DNA from: an uncultured Acidobacteriota bacterium
GTDB lineage: Bacteria; Acidobacteriota; Terriglobia; Bryobacterales; UBA6623
Direction of reading: 5' to 3'
Assembly (NCBI GenBank): GCA_963805925.1
Contig: CAWDWB010000009.1
Location: 517,746 to 581,745 of the forward strand
DNA length: 64,000 nt
The notes under the pieces were generated by a model, which had not been told where the DNA came from, searched no databases, and saw only the letters and a program-made list of their open reading frames with translations. Each line of letters begins with the position of its first letter. Position 1 is the stretch's first letter. Below, piece after piece: positions 3,867-45,715 of the stretch. The position numbers were made by a program, and so were the translations under genes.

Positions 3867-5723
3867 ATGAAACTTGTAGATCTCAAACCCTTCGCGATCG
3901 CCTTATTAACGGCAGTTTCGGTGCTGGCTCAACAGCCCGCGACCATCGCCGCAAACGACAACCGGACGCCGGCGGGCGAGTTGCGCGACGGCGTCCTGCA
4001 CTTGGAGTTCAACATCGACAAGGGCTCGTGGTATCCCGAGTCGGATAACGGCGAGTCGATCCCCGTGTATGCCTTTGGCGAGACCGGCAAGCCGTTGCAG
4101 ACTCCGGGACCGACGATTCGCGTTCCGCAGGGCACGACCATCGACATTTCGCTGCACAATTCGCTCACCGTGCCGGCGACGCTGCACGGCTTCCATCAGC
4201 GACCGGGCAAAGATAGCGATACGGTGACGGTCGATCCCGGCCAAACGCAGCATGTACGCTTCAACGCAGGGGCCGCGGGAATCTACCCCTACTACGGACG
4301 CACCCCGGACGGCGGAATGGGCGCCAACGGCAGGAACCGCGTCCTCGACGCTTTGCTCGGCGGAGCGCTGGTGGTGGATCCGCCGGGCACAGACCCCACT
4401 GCGGACCGCATCTTCGTGCTGGAGCGCTGGAAAGGCGCGCTCAGGACGGCGATCAACGGCAAGTCCTGGCCGTTCACGGAACGCTTATCCGCCGAGGTGG
4501 GCAAGGCGGTTCATTGGAAAGTCCTCAACGTGTCGGACCTCAGCCATCCGATGCACTTGCACGGTTTCCACTTCTGGCTGGACGCGGAGGGCGACGGAGA
4601 GTCCTACAAGGTACTCGACAAGAGCGAGAGGCACGAAGAGTTCACGCATTCGGCCGATGTCATGGAGACTTTCGAGATCACCTGGATGCCAAAGGAGCCG
4701 GGCCGTTGGCTTTATCACTGCCACCGGATGGCGCACATGCGGCTGCCTCTGCCGCTCCAACCAGGGGATGGCGTGGTCCCGGAGCATGTTGCCGAACACG
4801 AACACATGGAGGACTACGACTCAGGCTATGCCGGTTTGGGCGGCATGATTCTGGGCATTACCGTGACGGGGCATTCTGAGTTCGACACGGTGACCAACTG
4901 GCAAGCCGAACGACGAGTGAAGTTGGATGTGACCAACCGCAACGGAGATCCTTCTCTCTACGAGATCGCGCTTACGGACCTAAATTCCGATGCGCCGCCG
5001 GAGAAGAGTACAGGATTGACCGGGCCGCTGCTCGTCGTCACTGAGGGTCAGAAGACGGAGATTACCGTTGCTAACAACGCTTCGTCGGCGACGAGCATTC
5101 ACTGGCACGGGCAAGAGATCGAGAGCTATTACGACGGCGTGCCGTGGTGGAGCGGGATCGGAGAGAAGCGCGCGCCTCTGGTGGAGCCCGGACACGAGTT
5201 CAAAGCGAAGCTGATCCCCCAACGAGCAGGGTCGTTCATCTATCACGCCCATTGGCATGACGGCGGTCAGTTGATGGGCGGCATACAGGGACCAATGATC
5301 GTGCTGCCGCCAGGAGAGACATACGATCCGGAAAAGGATAAGTACTTCATCATGAGTTCGGCCCCTCCGGGATGGTACGGCGGCGCTATGCTGCTGATGA
5401 ATGGACTGCCTCAGCCGACGAGGGGCATGCGCTTGCGAGTAGGCGAAACGTACCGCTTCCGGTTCATGAACATCACTCCAGTGGGAGACGCGTTGCATGT
5501 GGGGCTCATGGGGCCGTCGGGCCCTGTCGAGTGGCGGCCATTGGCAAAGGACGCGGCCGAGACGGCGAACCACGAACTGCGCGCGGCGGATCAGCATGTG
5601 GCAGTAGGCGAGACGTTCGACTTCGAGTACCGCGCGACGAAGGCCGAAGAGCTTCAGCTAGAGGCCTGGTTCCCCGGCGGCAATCCGCTCATCGTGGAAA
5701 CAGTGGTCTTCGAGGATCGCTAG
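3867..5723 (+). CDS. Multicopper oxidase
   Basis: ATG at 3867 gives the signal peptide MKLVDLKPFAIALLTAVSVLAQQ. Copper-ligand motifs present: HPMHLHGFHF, YHCHRMAHM, IHWHG, YHAHWHD. Confidence 0.85.
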   Translation: MKLVDLKPFAIALLTAVSVLAQQPATIAANDNRTPAGELRDGVLHLEFNIDKGSWYPESDNGESIPVYAFGETGKPLQTPGPTIRVPQGTTIDISLHNSLTVPATLHGFHQRPGKDSDTVTVDPGQTQHVRFNAGAAGIYPYYGRTPDGGMGANGRNRVLDALLGGALVVDPPGTDPTADRIFVLERWKGALRTAINGKSWPFTERLSAEVGKAVHWKVLNVSDLSHPMHLHGFHFWLDAEGDGESYKVLDKSERHEEFTHSADVMETFEITWMPKEPGRWLYHCHRMAHMRLPLPLQPGDGVVPEHVAEHEHMEDYDSGYAGLGGMILGITVTGHSEFDTVTNWQAERRVKLDVTNRNGDPSLYEIALTDLNSDAPPEKSTGLTGPLLVVTEGQKTEITVANNASSATSIHWHGQEIESYYDGVPWWSGIGEKRAPLVEPGHEFKAKLIPQRAGSFIYHAHWHDGGQLMGGIQGPMIVLPPGETYDPEKDKYFIMSSAPPGWYGGAMLLMNGLPQPTRGMRLRVGETYRFRFMNITPVGDALHVGLMGPSGPVEWRPLAKDAAETANHELRAADQHVAVGETFDFEYRATKAEELQLEAWFPGGNPLIVETVVFEDR

Positions 5724-36243: not shown

Positions 36244-36439
36244 GAGCAGCGACCAGTTTTGAGAACGCCGCAATTGTAGCTCTTCCGGGCTGCTTGGCGG
36301 AGGGGTGAATCAGTTGACGCAGCGCCGTTGCTGTCCGACAATCGGGCCGGAACGATCAATGCCGAGGAGAACGAAACGGATCGAATGGACTGCGCGTTGG
36401 GCGGGCTTTCTGTTGATCTTGGCGGCCGGCGCCGTTCTC

Positions 36440-36487
36440 GGGGGAAACCGGGGGGAAACCGGGGGGAAACGGGGGGAAACCGGGACA
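36440..36487. repeat. Tandem 11-bp repeat GGGGAAACCGG x4 (one unit lacks a C), ending in the R-element TIR half-site AAACCGGGACA
   Basis: Read directly: gGGGGAAACCGGGGGGAAACCGGGGGGAAACGGGGGGAAACCGGGACA. Confidence 0.85.
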
Positions 36488-37255
36488 TCCATGATAGGTA
36501 TTTGTCAAGGATGGACGCAAGTAGATCCTGAGGCCGGTGGAGAGACCAGCGTTAGTATGGCTCAGCGAAGAGAGAAGCGGACAGAGCCTTACGGGGTCAA
36601 CGGCCAGCGTGACTGACATCCATGAGGCTGCAGCGGGCCTGAGGGCCGTAGCAGAAGTTTCAGCTTAGGGTTAGAGCCGCGTCGGCCTCGAAACAGTCGA
36701 GAACGGTCGCAGGCGGGCCTTACGGCCTTGGCGCAGTGCCCGGATCGGCGCAGGACCGAGCGGGCGGCTTGTCTCCGGCTTCGCCCGAGAATCTTGTGCT
36801 CCTCCTCAGGCCGCTCGCGTACGCGGCCGAAGGGCTCGCTGGAGCGGTCCACGGCGAGAAGGTAAGCGACCAGCTTGCGCGCCACCGCCAGGTCGCGCGG
36901 TTGCGCGAGCGGTGCAATAACTCCCGCTCATGAACGGCCTGGAGTTCGGGGTTGAAGCGAGGCGTCGAGTGTTCGCGGCCTCGTAAGCAGGTGCATGCAG
37001 GTGCTTGTTGCGCTGCTTGCGACAACGGCGCGCGCTGCGTCTTGCCCGACCGACTCGCGTTGCGCCGCGCAGCAGTCAACGCAGTAGCTCACCGCCCGAC
37101 GCACCGAGCTGAATCGCTAGGGTTCAGCGACCTCCAAGGCCCACGTGGAGGGCTCGAAGACCTTGTACCCACGCCGTCGAATGGATTGCCGAAGCGGGCG
37201 ACAGCGTTCTCTCAACAGCCGATGTTGGGCGAGCCCTTGCAGCGAGACGCCGTTC
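36488..37255 (-). mobile_element. Degraded, 5'-deleted copy of the IS110/IS1111-family element (3' arm plus 3' part of the transposase gene)
   Basis: Collinear with 39724..40467 of the intact copy. It starts with the same TCCATGATAGGTATTTGTCAAGGATGGACGC and has many substitutions and indels that break the transposase frame (ORF fragments 36589..36885, 36720..37079). Homology ends at ...GACGCCGTTC. Confidence 0.75.
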
Positions 37256-37271
37256 GGGGAAACCGGGGGAG

Positions 37272-37448
37272 AAACCGGGACAGCCTCAATTAGCATTGGC
37301 CCCATCTCTAAGTCATTGATTCAACTAGATCTACGACGAGAATCGGAGCGGCGCGATATCGCGTCTTTAGGCTGCAACTGATTGAATAATAAAAGCTTCT
37401 GCTCTCAGAACAGATTCTGCTTGATTACAATTGAGGCTGTCCCGGTTT
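37272..37448. mobile_element. R1: 177-bp MITE-like element with perfect 20-bp terminal inverted repeats
   Basis: Left TIR AAACCGGGACAGCCTCAATT (37272-37291), right TIR AATTGAGGCTGTCCCGGTTT (37429-37448). The interior is AT-richer and 100% identical to R2 and R3. Confidence 0.85.
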
Positions 37449-37935
37449 GCCCCACTCGATCTAGCTCCTCGATTAGTTGCAACACCGAAACACGCTCGTC
37501 CTCATGGAGTTCAAACCAACGCCCACCGGTCAAAGTATCGACTGTGGCCTCGGCGATGTATGCGTTCTCGGCATCTGAACTGAACCATACGGAAAGATCT
37601 CCTCTATCGATACAAAGACGATAGTCGAATCGCGAGCCTCCTCCTTCCGTCGAATCCCGTTCTACCGAAACTGTCTCTTCAAGGACGCGCAAGAGTTTTT
37701 GCTTCAGCGATGCAGAAATCCTCTGACTCGAAACCAGATATCTCTCATCCTTCAATGCCGCTGCTGCCACAGCAGTGCGTGTCAGAACTTGCGGCGACAG
37801 GAAGTAGACTCTCATGACGTCATCGGCCGAGACTGCCGTACAGCCCGCGAAGGCCCCAACCCAAGCTGCGGCAACGACAATCGACAACACCAACAATGCC
37901 AACAACCGTCGTGGACTAATGGGCGTAGAAGTCAT
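37405..37935 (-). CDS. Hypothetical lipoprotein, immunity-like orphan; the last 14 codons are read from R1
   Basis: MTSTPISPRRLLALLVLSIVVAAAWVGAFAGC contains a lipobox. AAGGTGA RBS. The ATG overlaps a preceding TGA (ATGA). The ORF leaves native sequence at 37448/37449 and terminates inside R1. Confidence 0.45.
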   Translation of the reverse strand: MTSTPISPRRLLALLVLSIVVAAAWVGAFAGCTAVSADDVMRVYFLSPQVLTRTAVAAAALKDERYLVSSQRISASLKQKLLRVLEETVSVERDSTEGGGSRFDYRLCIDRGDLSVWFSSDAENAYIAEATVDTLTGGRWFELHEDERVSVLQLIEELDRVGQTGTASIVIKQNLF

Positions 37936-38001
37936 ACTTCACCTTTTGTTGGCCGCGCGCCGCTTCTTCGAGCTTGAGCATGGACGCCGCGCTTGTTGGG
38001 G

Positions 38002-38178
38002 AAACCGGGACAGCCTCAATTAGCATTGGCCCCATCTCTAAGTCATTGATTCAACTAGATCTACGACGAGAATCGGAGCGGCGCGATATCGCGTCTTTAG
38101 GCTGCAACTGATTGAATAATAAAAGCTTCTGCTCTCAGAACAGATTCTGCTTGATTACAATTGAGGCTGTCCCGGTTT
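38002..38178. mobile_element. R2: second identical copy of the 177-bp MITE-like element, same orientation as R1
   Basis: Base-for-base identical to 37272..37448. Confidence 0.85.
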
Positions 38179-38204
38179 GCCCCCGGTTTGCCCCCGGTTT
38201 GCCC
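38171..38204. repeat. Tandem 11-bp repeat CCCGGTTTGCC x3, beginning inside the R2 right TIR
   Basis: Read directly: CCCGGTTTGCCCCCGGTTTGCCCCCGGTTTGCCC. Confidence 0.85.
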
Positions 38205-38456
38205 CGCAAGCGAGGCTTCGTGGCGGCTCAGCCGACCGAAGCCGGGGTCGCTCCCGCCCTTCCCCTGACCCCCAAAACGGGGTCCTGCCGCCACCGCTCC
38301 GCTGTACTTCGCTCACTCTTCGGCTCTTACCGGCCCAAACGGTGAACGCCTCCCATCGAAACTACGGTGAACGCCCCTTTTTTCCTGAGTTCACCCGCCT
38401 CCCGCCACGCCACGGGGGTAAAAAGGGCGGTCGTAGGATGTGGCGGGCACGTAGGT

Positions 38457-38903
38457 TTACAGAGTTAACCATCCATTGCCTACAATGCCTAGAATCGTCT
38501 CGAAGTCTCGCCGATCCAATACTTCACTAGTCTCTACTTGGTCATCGGTCCACATTTCGGGGGTGGAGAGCAGTCTAGTCAAGACGATCTGCGAACCTCG
38601 CGGACAACGCATGAGATAGTATTCCCGCACTATGCGGTCGCTGCTCCAATCCTTGTATTCAGAAGCTCGCGCCCAGTGGTGGGTCGAAACCAAATGCTCA
38701 AGCTCTTGATCTCTTCCGGTGCCGTCACCGACAAAAACTGACGCCAGTTTCACTAGCGCATGACCGTCAAGACTGCCCCCACATACCGAACATGGGCTAA
38801 ACCGATCACGGACAACAGCAAGAGTACGGTCGGCAGAGGACATGCGCTTCGGGCGCCAAGCAAATAGCTTTAACAGTCTATCCGACACACTAAGCATCAT
38901 CAT
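38457..38903 (-). CDS. Hypothetical protein, candidate immunity protein for the upstream glycine-zipper toxin tip
   Basis: 148-aa ORF starting 9 nt after the toxin stop, with GGACGAGGAAA-ATG. No recognisable domain. Its position is typical of Rhs/CDI immunity genes. Confidence 0.5.
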   Translation of the reverse strand: MMMLSVSDRLLKLFAWRPKRMSSADRTLAVVRDRFSPCSVCGGSLDGHALVKLASVFVGDGTGRDQELEHLVSTHHWARASEYKDWSSDRIVREYYLMRCPRGSQIVLTRLLSTPEMWTDDQVETSEVLDRRDFETILGIVGNGWLTL

Positions 38904-38912
38904 TTCCTCGTC

Positions 38913-39711
38913 CTAGTTCAGCCAATCGTAAATCTTGGTTGCCACTTTTTCGCCACCGATTCCGCCGGCGATGCCTCCACCTAGGGCACCTATAACTCCG
39001 CCAATCGCCGCTCCGGGAACGGCTCCCGCCCCACCAAACCATACGCCAACCGCTGCACCGACTTGCGCCCCAGCGGCACCGCCAATACTCCCAAGTGCAA
39101 CCGCTCCTGCCCACGTACCACCTTCCTGGGCTAGTGCACGCGATTTATTGTCTGCGGTTGCTACGTTATACGCTGATACGCCTGCACCGACAACCATGAG
39201 CGCTGGCCCGGCTTTACCCGCAACCCCCATCGCTGCGTCAACAGCAGCATTAGATTTCGATGCGGTACCGCCAACTCTCGCGGCTTCATTGGCGATAGGG
39301 CGCATAGTTTCGGCGATCGCCGCCCCCGTTGGGGAACTGGCGGCACGGGCCTCGATCTTGAGAGCGGTCCTTGCCGCCGATGCAACAGGATCTCCTTGCG
39401 GTGCTCCCTGCAACGTTTGCAGGCCCTGGTTGTAATTGGCTCGGGCGGCAGCATCCTGTGTTGCCTGGGTGCCCACACTCACGGCGGCACCTTGAACTGC
39501 CCGGCCCGCCGTCTCTTCATCCGTACAACGTTGTGTCCCATCCGGGCAACTGTCAGCTAGTCCATTCGGGTCAACTAGGCGAAGAGGATTATTAAGAACG
39601 TAAGCGTACGCGTTCCACGATTGAGGCTGAGACGCTCGAGCTGCCGCATTTCCCGGATCAACGCTCGTAAATCGCCCGAGGCTCGCCGACATGTACCGCG
39701 CCCCGAAGTGG
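38913..39711 (-). CDS. Orphan Rhs C-terminal tip: end of the RHS core (FGARYM...GRFTSVDP...NNPLRLVDPNGL) plus a glycine-zipper-rich C-terminal toxin domain; 5'-truncated
   Basis: RHS repeat-associated core signature, then a variable C-terminal domain ending in long G/A-rich zipper helices (GAAVGVWFGGAGAVPGAAIGGVIGALGGGIAGGIGG). Upstream homology ends at the R3/IS boundary. The ORF-track N-terminus MDVPVS is translated from TIR/IS sequence. Confidence 0.7.
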
Positions 39712-39723
39712 GAAACCGGGACA

Positions 39724-41159
39724 TCCATGATAGGTATTTGTCAAGGATGGACGCAGTCATCCTGAGGCCGGTGGAGAGACCAGCGTTAGTAGGTCAGCGA
39801 AGAGCGAAGCGGACCGAGCCTTACGGGGTCAACGGGCCAAGCGTGACCAGACATCCATGAGCTGCAGCGGGCCTGAGGGCCGTAGCAGAAGTTTCAGTTA
39901 GGGTTAGAGCCCGTCGGCCTCGAAACAGTCAGAACGGTCGCAGCGGGCCTTACGGCCTTGGCGCAGTCCCGGATCGGCGAGGACCGACGGGCGGCTTGTC
40001 TCCGGCTTCGCCCGGAATCTTGTTCTCCTCCTCAGGCCGCTCGCGTACGCGGCGCGAAGGGCTCGCCGGAGCGGTCCACGGCGAGCAGGTAAGCGACCAG
40101 CTTGCGCGCCACCGCCAGCGTCGCGCGGTTGCGCGAGCCGTGCAATAACTCCCGCTCATGAACGGCCTGGAGTTCGGGGTTGAAGCGCGGCGCTAGTTTC
40201 GCCGCTTCGATCAGCACGGTCTGTAGGTGCTTGTTGCGCTGCTTGGACAAGGGCGCGCGTTGCGTCTTGCCCGCCGACTCGCGTTGCGCCGCGCACAGCC
40301 CGCAGTAGCTCACCGCCCGACGCACCGAGCTGAATCGCTCGGGTTCAGCGACCTCCAAGGCCCAGGTCAGCGCCGTCACTTGGCCGACGCCGCGAATCGA
40401 TTGCAAGCGGGCGACGCGTTCTCTCAACAGCCGATGTTGGGCGAGCCCTTTCAGCAGACGCCGTTCAAGATCTTCAAACGTCTCCAGCATTCCGCGGCTG
40501 AGAGCCAGCAGCTCGATCGCCGACTCCGGCGTGTGTTCGAGCGAATCGAGCAACTGGTAGAAGTAGCGTTTGCCGTGCAGCCGGTCCTTGACGTACTCCT
40601 CTCCGCACTCCATCAACAGGCCGGATATCTTGTTCTTCAGCCGCACCGCTTCGCGCACCAACAGGTTGCGGTAACGCAACACCCGCCGCAACTCGCGAAT
40701 CTCCCCCGGCGCCATGTAGCAGCCCGGCAACAGATCGCAGCGCGCCAGATCGCAGATCTTCTCCGCATCGAGGCGGTCGTTCTTCTTCTTGGCGCAGGCG
40801 ATCGCCTTCAGCATCGCCGGATGCGCCACTTGCAGCTCGGCCGCGTAGGGTTCCAAATGATCGTAAATCCAACCGGTGAACAGCGTCGCCTCCAACGCTC
40901 CGACCCACGGCCCGGCAACGCCTCGGCCCACTCGCTCAACGCCGCCCGCGTGGCCGCCACGCTGCCGGACGCGACCTTCTCTCCGGCAGTCGTCTTCACT
41001 GCATAGCTCACCGTTTTCTTGTGGACATCGAGCCCTACGTAGTAGAAACTCTCCATGGAATCCTCCTGGGTATGACTCGAGGCGCGCCGCTTCGCGGCTC
41101 GTCCTCGCTTTCTTTGTCCTCCAGGAGGATTCTTCTTGGCGCTCACCTATACATCAAAA
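39724..41159 (-). mobile_element. IS110/IS1111-family insertion sequence (about 1.44 kb) inserted in the left TIR of R3
   Basis: Flanks reconstitute the R TIR: AAACCGGGACA|IS|GCCTCAATT, with ACA/CA shared at both junctions. No terminal IRs, but subterminal IRs are present: ATGATAGGT (39727-39735) versus CACCTATACATC (41144-41155). Short 5' arm (about 100 bp) and long 3' arm (about 310 bp), as in the IS1111 subgroup. Confidence 0.85.
40032..41056 (-). pseudogene. IS110-family (DEDD/RuvC-like) transposase, interrupted by a 1-nt frameshift
   Basis: The N-terminus MESFYYVGLDVHKKTVSYAV is the IS110 DEDD_Tnp hallmark. The C-terminal part (40032..40931 frame) carries the Transposase_20-like region (SIRGVGQVTALTWALEV). 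The frames join as ...AEALPG|PWVGALEATLF if one C is added in GGGCC(C)G near 40912-40916. Confidence 0.85.
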
Positions 41160-41327
41160 CAGCCTCAATTAGCATTGGCCCCATCTCTAAGTCATTGATT
41201 CAACTAGATCTACGACGAGAATCGGAGCGGCGCGATATCGCGTCTTTAGGCTGCAACTGATTGAATAATAAAAGCTTCTGCTCTCAGAACAGATTCTGCT
41301 TGATTACAATTGAGGCTGTCCCGGTTT
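41160..41327. mobile_element. R3: third copy of the 177-bp MITE-like element; its first 11 bp lie at 39713..39723 on the other side of the IS
   Basis: 41160..41327 is identical to positions 10-177 of R1/R2. 39713..39723 = AAACCGGGACA. Confidence 0.85.
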
Positions 41328-41519
41328 GCCGAACCGGTTCCAACTCTGCGGATCGCCTACCCGTCCGGACGCCAAAAGTGGATCAGCGCTTGTGAACCGC
41401 CCCAGGGCCGACGACATATACCTGGCCAGGAAGTAATCCAACCCGGACTCTTGATCGCGTTCTTTGGCGGTGGACCGTTCCGCATCGTACGCGCACCAGC
41501 GCAACAGACCATGGGTCAA
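41328..41519 (-). pseudogene. Orphan Rhs core fragment (…AKERDQESGLDYFLARYMSSALGRFTSADP…PQSWNRF) truncated at the R3 boundary
   Basis: RHS core signature without YD repeats upstream or a toxin domain downstream. The reading frame runs into the R3 TIR and stops there. Confidence 0.6.
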
Positions 41520-42124
41520 AACCTGAAAAGTACCACTTTCTGCTTTGAACTTGATTGGTCAGGCTGCAAAACGCGACTCGCAAGGTTGCCGTCATGCACC
41601 GCGACAATAGTCGTTTCCCGGCCAGGCAGTAGATCGATCAAGACTTTGCCGTCCAATCCCGTTTGATACCACTTCTGACTTTCAGCATTTGCATCCCGGA
41701 CAAGAATCTCAGCGGATGCAACTGGAATCCCATCTCTATTTCGCACTTCCACTTGGCAATGCTTTACACGTCCGATGGTGAAGGCGTTGCCTGTCGTAGG
41801 CAAAACCTCCAGTGCTAACTTCAGGTCGACCGGATCGGTGTTGACCAAGAACTCTCGAACGGTCGTTCGACATAATCCATACGGACAAGTCGCAATAATC
41901 TGATAAAGCCCCATCGCAAGGTCTTGCGTCGGAACGGCGCCATTCCGATTCGTCAAGGCCCTTAAGCTTTCTCCCCTTCCTTCAAGAGATCTAACGATTA
42001 CAAGAACATCCGGGAAACCTAAACCTGATTTGTCCACGGTCACGACATGCACCTGGGCCGCTTGGGTGCAAACAGAGATACCCAGGAACAAGAATGAGAG
42101 ACGAACTTGCTTCCACTGGATCAT
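41516..42124 (-). CDS. Secreted CarboxypepD_reg-like protein; candidate immunity protein for the upstream HExxH toxin tip
   Basis: ATG at 42124 overlaps the toxin stop (ATGA). Signal peptide MIQWKQVRLSFLFLGISVCTQAAQ followed by two Ig-like beta-sandwich-type segments. Confidence 0.5.
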   Translation of the reverse strand: MIQWKQVRLSFLFLGISVCTQAAQVHVVTVDKSGLGFPDVLVIVRSLEGRGESLRALTNRNGAVPTQDLAMGLYQIIATCPYGLCRTTVREFLVNTDPVDLKLALEVLPTTGNAFTIGRVKHCQVEVRNRDGIPVASAEILVRDANAESQKWYQTGLDGKVLIDLLPGRETTIVAVHDGNLASRVLQPDQSSSKQKVVLFRF

Positions 42125-43350
42125 GGACAGGGCCCTCCCGGCGTATTTGCCACGCACGCAACCTTTTGAGCCTGCTGCGCTGCCTGAGCTGCTCCTTGTT
42201 GAATGATGGTTGCCGCCGCCGCGTCATACTGGACATTCGGTTGGAACTTTTGGCCAGCGGCTCCGAGCGCTTTCACCGTTTGTTGAGCGCGCTTCTCTGC
42301 CGTTCCTCCAGTTGTGTTTTGGGCACCCGGCCTAGATGACGCGTCTCCGGCGGCGCCCGCCGCCGCCGCTCCCTGGAAACTGGTTGCGGAAAGCATGTCC
42401 GTGACATGTTGATCTTCATGCGCAAACGCCGTCAACCCCACTGTGAAGTTGCTCTTCCCTGTCGCTTTGGCCACCGTTGAGATGTTCGAATTGTCTAGAG
42501 TGACGTTGATCCCTGCTACCGCTCCAGGAGAACCAGGAACTACGACCGCTGCACCAGCTGTAACGTTCTGAACCCCATTTCCGGTACTCACGGGTAAGCG
42601 GCCCTGGTCGAACGTGACCGGAAGATTGCTCGCGGCAATCGCGTTGACCGTTGCAGCGCCCTGTGGCGTTCTGAGCATCGTAGAGATGTACTCCTGGACC
42701 TGCCCCTGCATCCCAGGGGCAACGACAAAGTATTCACCAGTCGGATCGACGTATTTTAGCGGGTTGTTCCGCGTGTAGGTGTATCGGTTCCATGTTTGGG
42801 GCTCGCCCTCTGAGTACGGACCCGGGTCAGGGCTCGTAAACCGACCTTGGGCGCTCGCCATGTACCGCGCCCCGAAGTAGTCGAGGCCGCTCTCCGCGTC
42901 GCGTTCTTTGGCGGTAAAGAGCTGATCAAAGCCTGCCGGGTCGCCGTAGCCCGTCACGCTCGCGCGCGCCCCGTACGTATCCGGGATCTCTTCGCCGAAG
43001 GGGAAGAAGTCGTAGCGCGAGACGACGGCCGGCGTCGTGCTGTCGTCCGTCACCAAGCGCGTCGAGCCCAAGTGATCGGTCGTGCGGAAGTAGCTGCCCG
43101 CGGGCGTCGTCGACGCGGCGGTCGAGTACTCCGCCGCTAGCCGTCCCGTGGCGTCGTAAACGTAGGTCGTCTCTGCGCCCGTGTTGTAGTCGATCTTGCG
43201 GACGCGGTTGCCTTCGCCGTCATAGACGTACTCGGCGTCGGCGTTCGCGCTGTTGCACGTCCCCAGCGTGTTCTGGCGGGCTCCGTCCCCTTTGGCCTTT
43301 GGCTGGTCCCCTTTGGCTGCCTTTGGCTGAGAATGTGCTGTGACCGTCAC
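42121..43350 (-). CDS. Orphan Rhs tip: last YD repeats plus RHS core (…AKERDAESGLDYFGARYM…NNPLKYVDPTGEYF) plus C-terminal domain with an HExxH motif
   Basis: YD-repeat consensus (YVYDGEGNRV, YVYDATGRL). Core signature, then a roughly 220-aa variable domain containing AFAHEDQHVTD. Only a GTG start immediately after an in-frame TGA. The N-terminal roughly 24 codons are not Rhs-like. Confidence 0.7.
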   Translation of the reverse strand: MTVTAHSQPKAAKGDQPKAKGDGARQNTLGTCNSANADAEYVYDGEGNRVRKIDYNTGAETTYVYDATGRLAAEYSTAASTTPAGSYFRTTDHLGSTRLVTDDSTTPAVVSRYDFFPFGEEIPDTYGARASVTGYGDPAGFDQLFTAKERDAESGLDYFGARYMASAQGRFTSPDPGPYSEGEPQTWNRYTYTRNNPLKYVDPTGEYFVVAPGMQGQVQEYISTMLRTPQGAATVNAIAASNLPVTFDQGRLPVSTGNGVQNVTAGAAVVVPGSPGAVAGINVTLDNSNISTVAKATGKSNFTVGLTAFAHEDQHVTDMLSATSFQGAAAAGAAGDASSRPGAQNTTGGTAEKRAQQTVKALGAAGQKFQPNVQYDAAAATIIQQGAAQAAQQAQKVACVANTPGGPCP

Positions 43351-43392
43351 CGATCACCCGAACCCAGCGGACCAGTCCTTCAACTTCAAAGA

Positions 43393-43860
43393 CTACTGCA
43401 TCGAATCCTCGCCTTTGCCTTGCAATATCGATATGCCCTCTTCCACCTTGGCAGCCGGTATGAGCACCTGTCCATCGTCCAGATAAACCAAAGGCACTAA
43501 TTCTTGTCCGACCCATAGCCGGTGGTTTCGAGATCGAACTGGATCGATCGAGATAGTGCGCGCATCCTCTTGGACTCTTTCGTAATACGGGACAAACTCG
43601 CCTTTGTAGACCAGATCGCCATTCACGCCCGTCAGCCGGCATCCGTAGGTCGCTTGTGACGGATGCCAACACTCCATCCATTGTCCGCGCCTTGAGCGGG
43701 GCAATCCGACGTAAGGGGCCCATAAGAACACAGCCCCAGAGGACACACTATCAGGCCGACTGGGCGGTGTGTTCGCCCACCAATACGCGCCGACGACTAG
43801 GACGATCAAGAGTGCACCGAGGGTCGCCAGGGTGGCAATGACTTTACTTCCTGGAGTCAT
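43393..43860 (-). CDS. Hypothetical membrane-anchored protein
   Basis: MTPGSKVIATLATLGALLIVLVVGAYWW signal-anchor plus a roughly 120-aa extracytoplasmic domain. No recognisable family. The ORF-track start at 43878 is TTG. Confidence 0.45.
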   Translation of the reverse strand: MTPGSKVIATLATLGALLIVLVVGAYWWANTPPSRPDSVSSGAVFLWAPYVGLPRSRRGQWMECWHPSQATYGCRLTGVNGDLVYKGEFVPYYERVQEDARTISIDPVRSRNHRLWVGQELVPLVYLDDGQVLIPAAKVEEGISILQGKGEDSMQ

Positions 43861-44072
43861 ATAGCGCCGGGCCTCCAATATGATCCCGCGACACTAAGTC
43901 TATTCACGAGATTTTACCCCCGCTGCCTTGTCGTAGCAGATGCCTGAGTCGATTGACTCTCTCGGTGTTTTTTCCTCCGGCAAAAGGCAAAAGGGGACGG
44001 AGCACTAAACGAGTTCTTTATCCGGTCCAGGCGGTCCTCTTGCACCACGCTGCTACCCTGGAATCAACAAAG

Positions 44073-44095
44073 GTCCGCTCTGGAAGAGCGGGCCC
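44073..44095 (-). terminator. Rho-independent-like terminator about 215 nt downstream of pntB
   Basis: On the minus strand: GGCCCGCTC-ttcca-GAGCGGACC followed by TTTGTTGATT. Confidence 0.4.
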
Positions 44096-44191
44096 TGGTC
44101 GTTAGTAGTGTGAGTCGCATCAAATGTCCGCACTTTCAAGACCAGAAATAGCTCAAGTAATTGTTGCTACGAGACTTAGTCGACTTTTGAG

Positions 44192-44290
44192 GCGGACAAT
44201 CGCGGACATCAGCGGACATTCGAGGACCTTCGGCGGACAAATCGGGCCTTCAGGCGGGCATCTGGCGGTCACTCGCGGTCGCCGGCGGGC
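44192..44290. repeat. Degenerate tandem decamer array (GCGGACAnnn / GCGGnCnnnn, about 10 units)
   Basis: GCGG recurs at 44192, 44202, 44212, (GAGG at 44222), 44233, 44254, 44265, 44275 and 44285. An inverted TGTCCGC lies at about 44125. Confidence 0.6.
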
Positions 44291-44311
44291 GCGATCCGGT
44301 CGCTGAGGTAC

Positions 44312-45715
44312 TTACTCCGCGCGCAGATTGGCGAGCAAGGCGTCGACAGAAGCCTTCGCGTCGCCGAAGAGCATGCGCGAGTTGTCGCGGTAGAAGAGCG
44401 GGTTGTCGATGCCGGAGTAGCCGCTGGCCATCGAGCGCTTGAAGATGACGACGCTCTTGGCTTTCCAGACCTCAAGCACCGGCATGCCGTAGATCGGGCT
44501 GGAAACGTCGTCGAGTGCGGCAGGGTTGACGATATCGTTGGCGCCGATGACCAGCACCACATCGGTCGACGGGAAGTCCGCGTTGATCTCGTCCATCTCG
44601 AGCACGACGTCGTAAGGGATACGAGCTTCGGCCAGCAGGACGTTCATGTGACCGGGGAGGCGACCGGCGACAGGATGGATGGCGAAGCGCATCCGCGTGC
44701 CGTTGGCCTGCAACTTCTTCATCAGATCGGCCACCGCGTATTGCGCCTGGGCAACGGCCATGCCGTAGCCGGGCACAACGACCACCTCTTTCGCTGCGCT
44801 CAGCCAGGCGGCGACCTCCTCAGCCGAGGTCGACGTGACTTCGCCCTGCGGCTCGCCGTTGGCAGCGGGCGCGGACTTGCCGGCCCCTTGTCCGAAGCCG
44901 CCGAGGATGACGCTGACGAACTTGCGATTCATCGCCCGGCACATGATGTAGCTAAGGATCGCGCCGGAGCTGCCGACCAATGCGCCGGTGATGATGAGCA
45001 GGTCGTTGCCGAGCATGAAGCCGGCGGCGGAGGCGGCCCAGCCCGAGTAGCTGTTGAGCATCGAGACGACGACGGGCATGTCGGCCGAACCGATGGCCGC
45101 GACCAGGTGCACGCCCAGCAGCAACGCGATGCCGGTGATGATAAGCAGCGGCGTGAGGCCGGCAGGATCAGGCGCGCGCATAAACCAGACCGTGAGCGGC
45201 GCACCGGACAACACGCCGACGAGATTCAGCACGTGGCGGCCCGGCAATAGCAGCGGCTTGCTTCCCCAGATGCCCTGCAACTTAGCGAAGGCAACAACCG
45301 ATCCGCTAAAGGTGATCGCACCGATGAAGACGCCGGCGCAGATTTCGAAGTCATGGACGATGCGTTCAAATCCGGCGGTCTGGACGGCAGGCGCTAGGTA
45401 GTTGCTGATGCCGACCAGCACTGCCGCGGCGCCGACGAAGCTGTGCAGCATGGCGACCAGCTGCGGCATGGCGGTCATTTCGACGCGGGCGGCGAGTCTC
45501 GCCCCGACGACGGCGCCGACGGCCAGCGCCGGAACCAGCAGCGTCCAATTGCCGATGTGGCCTCCGCCTAGGGTGAAGACCACAGCCAGCAGCATGCCGA
45601 GGATTCCGAACCAATTGCCGCGACGGGCGGTTTCCTGAGTTGAAAGTCCGCCGAGGCTCTGGATAAAGAGCACGGCGGCGACGAGGTAGGCGGCTGTGAT
45701 GACTCCCGGCGGCAT
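44312..45715 (-). CDS. pntB: NAD(P) transhydrogenase subunit beta
   Basis: 467 aa with a polytopic N-terminal half plus the dIII NADP(H)-binding domain ([22 protein letters not shown]). Confidence 0.9.

Follow-up and report, generated by a model that had tools for sequence, protein, structure and literature searches.

The 64,000-nt stretch analyzed here (positions 517,746 to 581,745 of contig CAWDWB010000009.1; hereafter, the window) derives from an uncultured soil acidobacterium, probably of the Bryobacterales. It carries an insert of approximately 8 kb (36273–44312; hereafter, the island), which extends from the stop codon of pntB (44312) to the start of an SMP-30/gluconolactonase-like gene (36273) and contains three fragments of Rhs toxin genes, small genes for putative immunity proteins, and several mobile elements. 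A full-length Rhs protein consists of a YD-repeat shell of 1500–2000 amino acids (aa) enclosing a variable C-terminal toxin. The Rhs core, an aspartyl protease, releases the toxin after a PxxxxDPxG(L) motif, and a small immunity gene lies downstream. New toxin/immunity tips enter through recombination in the conserved core, and the older tips are displaced downstream as orphans without a start codon, export signal, or shell. The Rhs-related genes of the island and their partners are as follows, where ORF denotes an open reading frame and MITE a miniature inverted-repeat transposable element.

43393..43860, minus strand: orf161 ('imm0'), an orphan gene of the immunity type whose product has a membrane anchor at its N terminus, with no toxin partner here
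42121..43350, minus strand: tip i, an intact 409-aa ORF with ~130 aa of YD shell end plus core, the motif PLKYVDPTGE, and a putative toxin domain
41516..42124, minus strand: imm-i, whose secreted product, a beta-sandwich protein of two domains, would confer cognate immunity to tip i
41331..41519, minus strand: core ii, the 5' stub of a second module (…KERDQESGLDYFLARYMSSALGRFTSADP…SWNRF), ended by MITE-3
38913..39728, minus strand: tip iii, in which a core 3' end (39716–39558) is followed by a glycine-zipper C-terminal domain of 214 aa
38457..38903, minus strand: orf148, encoding a small cytoplasmic Cys/His protein, the putative immunity protein of tip iii, 9 nt past tip iii

Read along the minus strand, the island begins with ~430 nt of noncoding DNA, followed by orf161, tip i, imm-i, core ii, and MITE-3 with an insertion sequence (IS). 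Past the IS come a remnant of the MITE-3 terminal repeat, tip iii, orf148, MITE-2, and ~63 nt, and the island closes with lipo176, MITE-1, a decayed IS copy, and four GGGGAAACCGG units. The toxin and immunity roles given here to the tips and the genes downstream of them are putative and were inferred from sequence.

The check with hidden Markov models suggested by an initial annotation of this DNA was run, and the Rhs-associated core profile (TIGR03696, Rhs_assc_core; cut-off 32.5 bits) supports an RHS core domain in all three segments. Tip i scores 61.5 bits (E 7.9e-17) and tip iii 43.6 bits (E 3.1e-11), and core ii, truncated by the MITE, falls just below the cut-off with 31.2 bits (E 2.4e-7). 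YD repeats were detected in tip i only, by TIGR01643 (YD_repeat_2x; 18.6 bits, cut-off 15.8); the Pfam profile RHS_repeat (PF05593) finds one repeat there, just below its cut-off of 22 (21.4 bits, E 3.4e-4). With E values of 7e-30 to 1e-10, a family profile of 40 sequences (tip i plus 39 homologues) hit the solved Rhs, TccC, and teneurin shells at their C-terminal ends. Furthermore, a tblastn search of the 64 kb used eight Rhs queries from relatives, five of them 1500–1950 aa long and three shorter, and returned exactly three Rhs segments, all on the minus strand (43275–42730, 41486–41331, and 39716–39519). These segments align to the last ~10% of the full-length 1500–1950-aa Rhs proteins of relatives, for example to residues 1366–1607 of 1754, and a motif scan of the window revealed no further Rhs core. 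The PxxxxDPxGL boundary is present as PLKYVDPTGE (42733–42762) in tip i and as PLRLVDPNGL (39558–39587) in tip iii, and is absent from core ii, a stub that ends ahead of this motif. A full YD shell (>1000 aa) that includes an N-terminal region for delivery or export is absent from the 64 kb, which retain only the last ~130–180 shell residues. By sequence, the Rhs ORFs of the island are fragments and not full members of the family. Their cores are 72–78% identical to one another, and the best match to the Rhs part in a set of 5.8 billion proteins that includes the contig's own proteins reaches at most 78% identity.

No gene for a shell, PAAR, VgrG, type VI secretion system (T6SS), two-partner secretion, or integrase was found in the window. 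The large ORFs outside the island are all housekeeping genes (multicopper oxidase, KatG, AlaRS, PGI, G6PD, pntAB, LpxA, ferrochelatase, P-type ATPase, and others), and no main full-length rhs gene lies upstream of the modules within the window. The claim of the initial annotation that no long shell or delivery gene is present is borne out by the three tblastn segments and the housekeeping nature of the large ORFs. Its statement that there is no parent rhs gene stands for the 64 kb covered by the tblastn search and the ORF survey, and extends no further than the window.

The closest loci belong to metagenome-assembled genomes of Bryobacterales and other Acidobacteriota (contigs denoted L). These relatives also carry full-length rhs genes of 1500–1950 aa, some of them followed by orphans, as in L032. 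The full-length Rhs proteins of L036, L063, L071, and L073 have N-terminal Sec-type signal peptides; a Pfam scan of two of them (L071 and L073) detected no PAAR domain, and no T6SS genes were seen among those scanned upstream of three full-length relatives. Since these four full-length proteins are of the Sec type and the two scanned lack PAAR, the missing PAAR, VgrG, and T6SS genes in the window are uninformative. Upstream of the full-length rhs genes, a set of unannotated secreted accessory genes is conserved in L073 (2930–6021) and L036 (3130–5375), and more weakly in L010, L059, and L062. They encode an immunoglobulin (Ig)-repeat protein of ~495 aa, a CarboxypepD_reg-like protein of ~255 aa, and a protein of ~263 aa, which are absent from the window and may represent lineage-specific accessory or delivery factors. 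Of the 22 loci of relatives with 10 kb of flanking DNA in both directions, seven have at least 900 shell residues nearby and twelve have fewer than 450. The lack of a nearby parent is therefore common in the Bryobacterales relatives.

Tip i corresponds to the module that the initial annotation described as a few YD repeats, a core, and an HExxH domain followed by a coupled secreted ORF, and each of these parts was recovered. The shell end and core span 43275–42733, and the 204-aa C-terminal domain (42124–42732) contains the motif HEDQH (42406–42420). The ORF has its own GTG start, 42 nt past orf161, with a stop codon directly upstream, and the homology to its closest relative (L002, 79% identity) begins at 43275. 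The homologues of tip i are nearly all fragments of 250–670 aa that are cut at varied points of the YD region, and several of them form pairs that share the upstream Rhs part and differ in the toxin domain, such as P0035/P0038. In a family of 40 sequences, the H, E, and H of the motif are each conserved in at least 90%, and HEDQH falls in a predicted helix (101–120) of the AlphaFold model (AF2), which has a pLDDT of 91.5 and a pTM of 0.88. Foldseek found nothing significant for the domain in the PDB; the top matches are zinc hydrolases (TM 0.30–0.40), the best being YbeY at E 0.78. The Pfam profile Peptidase_M91 gives a sub-threshold match (E 0.021, 15.6 bits, cut-off 25). The ATG of imm-i (42124) overlaps the TGA stop of tip i (42121–42123) in an ATGA arrangement. 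The protein has a Sec-type signal sequence (MIQWKQVRLSFLFLGISVCTQA/AQ) followed by CarboxypepD_reg (E 1.3e-7) and Ig_DR_A0283-like (E 3.6e-4) domains in Pfam. Homologues of imm-i with 56–62% identity are located directly 3' of the same HExxH domain in three unrelated loci (L045, L079, and L080). This recurrent pairing identifies tip i and imm-i as a putative cognate toxin/immunity pair. Because imm-i is predicted to be secreted, the toxin would act in the periplasm, and we infer that the tip i domain is a zincin-like metallohydrolase acting in the periplasm of the target cell. It resembles the NleD-like M91 peptidases and other HExxH zincins of polymorphic toxins in its conserved HExxH, its alpha/beta layout with a helical motif, and its position as a C-terminal toxin. 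Unlike them, its M91 match is sub-threshold, no PDB fold is significantly similar, and its partner is a secreted CarboxypepD_reg-like protein.

The second and third modules flank MITE-3. Core ii begins right past the stop codon of imm-i, as does the second module of L045, and is 87% identical to the core of L002; the core-only fragment reported in the initial annotation is thus a genuine Rhs core that ends in the MITE. The Rhs part of tip iii opens at …FGARYM, adjoining the other end of MITE-3. Where the homologous positions of core ii and tip iii overlap, the two are only 72% identical, and therefore they come from two different modules. The sequence between them was probably lost, most simply via recombination between MITE copies. 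The ORF of tip iii is 271 aa long. Its ATG and first six codons (39709–39728) derive from the IS end (…ATGGATGT) and the MITE repeat (CCCGGTTTCCC) and not from rhs. The initial annotation had noted a core end, a glycine-zipper domain, and a small following ORF, and all three are confirmed. The zipper (38952–39119) comprises 13 overlapping GxxxG motifs at residues 204–259, which points to a membrane-inserting glycine-zipper toxin. The domain belongs to a large family and elsewhere occupies the C terminus of proteins of 1092–3853 aa. In L045, a glycine-zipper Rhs tip and then an orf148 homologue (33% identity) directly follow a tip i-like module. Since L045 has this order without a MITE, the succession of modules i and iii predates the MITEs.

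The same island was found in other samples. A 6.4-kb contig from another ENA sample (L078), which is noisy with 47 small indels, has the same order of parts at ~97% identity, comprising tip i, imm-i, core ii, a MITE, the IS, tip iii, orf148, a MITE, lipo176, a MITE, and the IS remnant. A contig from a separate run (L001; Logan ERR11594398) matches 39746–38485 (1262 nt) at 100%. These reproductions of the arrangement argue against both an assembly artefact and ongoing rearrangement on that time scale; the description of the island as actively rearranged in the initial annotation is not supported, given L078. The window and L078 diverge most densely within orf148. Specifically, this gene differs from the L078 copy (3943–4383) by ~10%, with a synonymous divergence (dS) of 0.35 and a nonsynonymous divergence (dN) of 0.055, and the resulting dN/dS of ~0.16 is a single comparison over 107 codons with this noisy contig. 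The tip iii toxin differs by ~1.5%, with a dS of 0.043. This pattern suggests that orf148 lies in a tract imported by recombination and that purifying selection may act on the immunity gene.

A further immunity-type gene, orf161, was overlooked in the initial annotation and lies at the upstream island end. Its product shows a hydropathy (KD19) of up to 2.6 at residues 7–25. Ten homologues with 48–55% identity were found. In L083 and L084, the homologue lies 33 nt past a 347-aa Rhs tip made of a core and a C-terminal domain, and this pairing of an Rhs tip with an orf161-type gene recurs in 22 further similar places. Another homologue is the last gene of a long array of Rhs tips and immunity genes in L081, and one lies upstream of an Rhs fragment in L054. 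These sequence comparisons class orf161 as an immunity-type gene that has lost its toxin here. The partner tip in L083 (6925–7968) has a C-terminal domain with NCATFC and a very weak match to PPPDE/Peptidase_C97 (E 0.24). This domain could act as a papain-like amidase or peptidase, a toxin activity that would suit a membrane-anchored periplasmic immunity protein. The 1476-aa ORF of L054 was considered as a parent rhs gene and rejected, being an Ig-repeat protein and not Rhs. One structural feature encloses orf161:

43280..44003, no strand assigned: an inverted-repeat segment whose 27-nt arms (43280–43306 and 43977–44003, 89% complementary) enclose orf161

The inner arm abuts the start of the rhs homology (43275), and the repeat may mark a cassette border or serve as a regulatory site. 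Repeats of CCCCTTTTGYY are also present upstream of the orf161 homologue in L081/L082. The motif CCTTTTGYY was rejected as a general boundary repeat of Rhs cassettes, as it was seen only upstream of orf161 homologues.

The remaining features of the island are mobile elements and the parts next to them. The initial annotation had called the island peppered with mobile repeats, which is now resolved into three 186-nt MITEs and one full and one decayed copy of an IS110-family element whose identity had been missed.

41147..41332, no strand assigned: body and right terminal repeat of MITE-3, with the left repeat split by the IS (remnant at 39709–39722)
39723..41158, minus strand: IS110-family (IS1111-type) element of ~1.44 kb, with the ATG of its transposase gene (tnp) near 41056
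37998..38204, no strand assigned: MITE-2 (37998–38183) plus two extra GGGCAAACCGG units
37936..37997, minus strand: possible 3' remnant of a lost upstream ORF (…NKRGVHAQARRSGARPTKGEV*), whose TGA overlaps the lipo176 ATG (ATGA)
37405..37935, minus strand: lipo176, an ORFan lipoprotein-like ORF with the lipobox-like AFAGC, between the direct copies MITE-2 and MITE-1
37268..37453, no strand assigned: MITE-1, 186 nt
36474..37255, minus strand: second IS110-family copy, 5'-truncated and decayed, matching the 3' part of the full element at ~92% identity
36441..36485, no strand assigned: four tandem GGGGAAACCGG units, the outer part of the MITE-type terminal repeat that holds the decayed IS copy

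The three MITEs are 95–100% identical, all in direct orientation, and confined to the island. Their 24-nt terminal repeat, GGGG(A/C)AAACCGGGACAGCCTCAATT (sequence GGGGAAACCGGGACAGCCTCAATT), is accompanied by a varying number of 11-nt GGGG(A/C)AAACCGG sub-repeats, and each copy in the window forms a terminator-like hairpin on the minus strand. Thirteen JGI metagenome contigs (L086–L098) carry a 20-nt version of the terminal repeat with the same sub-repeats around different inner sequences; a metagenome scan with a 25-mer from the MITE gave no match. No autonomous parent of the MITE was found, and the window contains no MITE transposase.

The tnp product matches NF033542 (transpos_IS110) with 167 bits (E 6.3e-49, cut-off 140) and the Pfam domains DEDD_Tnp_IS110 (PF01548) and Transposase_20 (PF02371). 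A noncoding region of 310 nt downstream of the tnp stop conforms to the IS1111-type layout, for which a long noncoding region downstream of tnp and site-specific insertion without long terminal repeats are the criteria (PMC11187229). Within the 310-nt region, CATGGATGTC is a repeat of the IS end, as expected of a guide RNA; a search of Rfam for a guide RNA of the IS yielded no match at E ≤ 1. The frameshift in tnp at 40914 corresponds to a missing G in a G run, L078 has this G, and the frameshift may be a sequencing error. Frameshifts in these assemblies are not to be taken as decay without read-level support. Within the MITE terminal repeat, the IS occupies the site GGGAC^AGCC and is flanked by AC at either end, and both IS copies share an identical junction, CATGGATGT|CCCGGTTTCCC, in a MITE-type repeat. 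In L094, an IS that is 75% identical to the island IS adjoins AC|AGGCTTCAAAG. From these junctions, the IS looks like an element that homes to the MITE terminal repeat. At the decayed copy, the same chimeric start from IS end and MITE repeat as in tip iii opens a 60-aa ORF (36492–36310). In a comparable manner, IS4321 and IS5075 target the terminal repeats of Tn21 (ref. 1 in PMC11187229). The shared features are a DEDD transposase, a long noncoding region past tnp, a single site in a foreign terminal inverted repeat, and the same flanking dinucleotide. In contrast to these elements, the target here is a 186-nt MITE repeat with GGGGAAACCGG sub-repeats rather than Tn21, and the sub-terminal repeats are short.

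The fourth module proposed in the initial annotation, a toxin remnant followed by a lipoprotein gene, stood in part. The lipo176 ORF with its lipobox-like AFAGC is present, its last ~15 codons lying within MITE-1. The ~63-nt remnant upstream (37936–37997) shows no toxin homology, its sole support being the in-frame TGA/ATG overlap, and nothing ties the module to Rhs. Among 5.8 billion proteins, homologues of lipo176 were found only in the same island from the other sample.

Parts of the island have a G+C content of 0.51–0.57, compared with 0.60–0.65 in the flanks, and the homology to a relative contig with 87% identity (L085) ends exactly at the pntB stop. L085 is the sole relative contig found and is too short to reveal an empty site. 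The break at pntB, the composition, the mobile elements, and the ORFan gene fit an accessory insert, which agrees with the initial annotation of an accessory island with orphan rhs-CT/immunity modules, as does the synteny of the three pairings conserved in unrelated loci. tRNA-linked integration was rejected, the nearest tRNA lying 3 kb away, beyond pntA. Six (A/T)TG(T/C)CCGC 8-mers, five direct and one inverted, occur within 140 nt just past pntB (44124–44261). The 8-mer is not enriched across the whole window, and the cluster could be an operator array or a set of recombinase arm sites at the island border. In the spacer past orf148 (38184–38456), there is a GC-rich hairpin (CCCGCCAC…GTGGCGGG) along with a direct repeat, GGCGTTCACCGT, present twice. 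A promoter and terminator scan of the island resembled that of shuffled sequence (promoter-like, 1 versus 2.2 expected; terminator-like, 8 versus 7.7), with no sigma-70-like promoter detected on the minus strand, and the only repeated feature was the hairpin within each MITE. The island gave no Rfam match at E ≤ 1 and no defence-system match in PADLOC.

Taken together, the locus is likely a decayed array of displaced orphan rhs-CT/immunity modules, whose remaining value is probably immunity. In this model, the island would be the eroded tail of an Rhs toxin locus. MITE copies and the IS1111-type element would have inserted into it and cut up the modules, and the segment between core ii and tip iii would have been lost by recombination between MITEs. 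The tips would be undeliverable from the locus, having neither a shell nor a signal peptide, and the toxins would therefore stay silent or, if produced, do no harm. Most of the immunity genes are intact, and purifying selection appears to act on at least one of them, so that the locus may persist as protection against the same toxins of neighbours. A smaller chance is that tip i could be re-armed by recombination with a full-length rhs gene elsewhere. Several observations weigh against this reading of the locus. A GTG start makes tip i a complete ORF, and tip iii has gained an ATG from the IS end, so the toxins are only presumed to be silent. The metallohydrolase assignment is based on the HExxH motif, the sub-threshold M91 match, and non-significant folds. 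An immunity protein against a membrane toxin would unusually lack a membrane segment, as orf148 does, and its dN/dS comes from the one short comparison with L078 given above. Finally, lipo176, having no homologues, is perhaps not part of the system at all.

A live cassette reservoir, in which a Sec-exported full-length rhs gene elsewhere in the genome swaps its toxin with that of tip i via recombination in the YD/core region, is rather unlikely. The relatives with full-length rhs genes, some trailed by orphans (L032), make such a partner plausible, and tip i retains ~540 nt of Rhs-coding homology, an intact core, a C-terminal domain, and an immunity gene. The mechanism itself has been demonstrated experimentally in evolved Salmonella (PMC3967940). 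However, the best identity to the Rhs part in the large protein set is 78% even with the contig's own proteins included, the island cores are only 72–78% identical to one another, and a single crossover with a parent at a distant locus would rearrange the chromosome. In addition, a MITE cuts two of the three Rhs stubs, which weakens the proposal of a cassette reservoir in the initial annotation; the part that appears to be maintained is the immunity genes, as the low dN/dS of orf148 would indicate. The mobile elements themselves might account for the layout if the modules had been imported or moved as MITE-bounded composites, such as MITE-2/lipo176/MITE-1, rather than displaced within an Rhs locus. 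Three direct MITEs do bracket lipo176 and the block of the IS, tip iii, and orf148; the same terminal repeat surrounds different inner sequences in the 13 metagenome contigs; and lipo176 is an ORFan. We regard this account as improbable, given that the MITE-free L045 has the same order of a tip i-like and a glycine-zipper module, which makes the array older than the MITEs, that no target-site duplications were identified, and that the window has no MITE transposase.

The start codons of tips i and iii, the latter gained from the IS end, and the cytoplasmic nature of orf148 would also be compatible with stand-alone intracellular modules, in which one or both tips act with their immunity proteins like toxin–antitoxin (TA) systems in regulation, addiction, or abortive defence, without export. 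An orphan Rhs of Salmonella has been described as a type II TA-like module (PMC7043789). Against this, imm-i is secreted and so unable to neutralise a cytoplasmic toxin, the scan detected no sigma-70-like promoter on the minus strand, PADLOC gave no match, and the homologues of tip i are cut at many points, resembling debris rather than a selected short form. Such a function is accordingly quite improbable. A chimeric join at the MITE or IS repeats is conceivable in what is apparently a contig of a metagenome-assembled genome, where an assembler might go astray at the 186-nt and ~780-nt repeats and 1-nt indels point to long-read errors. This explanation is highly improbable, as L078 has the same order in another sample and L001, from a separate run, matches across 39746–38485 at 100%. 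The decayed array of orphan modules is the reading we favour.

Orphan rhs-CT/rhsI modules are a known kind of locus, described in Enterobacteria at the rhsC locus of Dickeya dadantii and as rhs-orphan in Salmonella Typhimurium LT2 (Poole et al. 2011, PMC3150448; Koskiniemi et al. 2014, PMC3967940). The island shares with them a core reduced to its 3' end, the PxxxxDPxG(L) boundary, a variable toxin with a linked small immunity ORF, the lack of start and export signals of their own, and the presence of the same C-terminal domains on full-length carriers elsewhere. Unlike the enterobacterial orphans, it has no main rhs gene upstream in the window and belongs to the Acidobacteriota, and the full-length relatives examined are of the Sec type rather than the PAAR/VgrG type. 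Its modules are also interrupted by the MITE and the IS1111-type element, and one is reduced to an immunity gene. A second parallel is offered by orphan immunity arrays and acquired interbacterial defence islands, namely the T6SS immunity arrays of Vibrio cholerae (PMC5361080) and the orphan Rhs immunity genes of Serratia (PMC10539506). By analogy, the immunity genes here may likewise outlast lost or decayed toxins, with remnants alongside, and likely protect from the toxins of neighbours. In contrast to those arrays, the island has no T6SS cluster or tyrosine recombinase nearby, and protection here is putative. A broader proposal is that parentless Rhs tip/immunity modules might be the usual state in Bryobacterales, kept as immunity islands and remodelled by the MITE and its homing IS1111-type element rather than by recombination between parent and orphan, with tip i and its secreted partner forming a new periplasm-acting family that has no solved fold. 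We put this forward tentatively and consider it doubtful.

No paper on orphan Rhs modules in Acidobacteria turned up in a full-text literature search. Three candidate toxin/immunity pairs have no Pfam match above the cut-off: the HExxH domain with its confidently predicted fold and the CarboxypepD_reg-like protein, the glycine-zipper domain and the Cys/His protein, and the Rhs tip paired with the orf161 family. The IS would furthermore be a clear case in which an RNA-guided element of the IS110 family homes to the terminal repeat of a MITE. These putative toxin/immunity families and the apparent homing of the IS to the MITE are modest side finds, and the accepted view of how such loci work is unchanged. 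These findings extend the orphan Rhs toxin/immunity picture, established in Enterobacteria, to the Acidobacteriota, where this known kind of locus is seen in a little-studied lineage.

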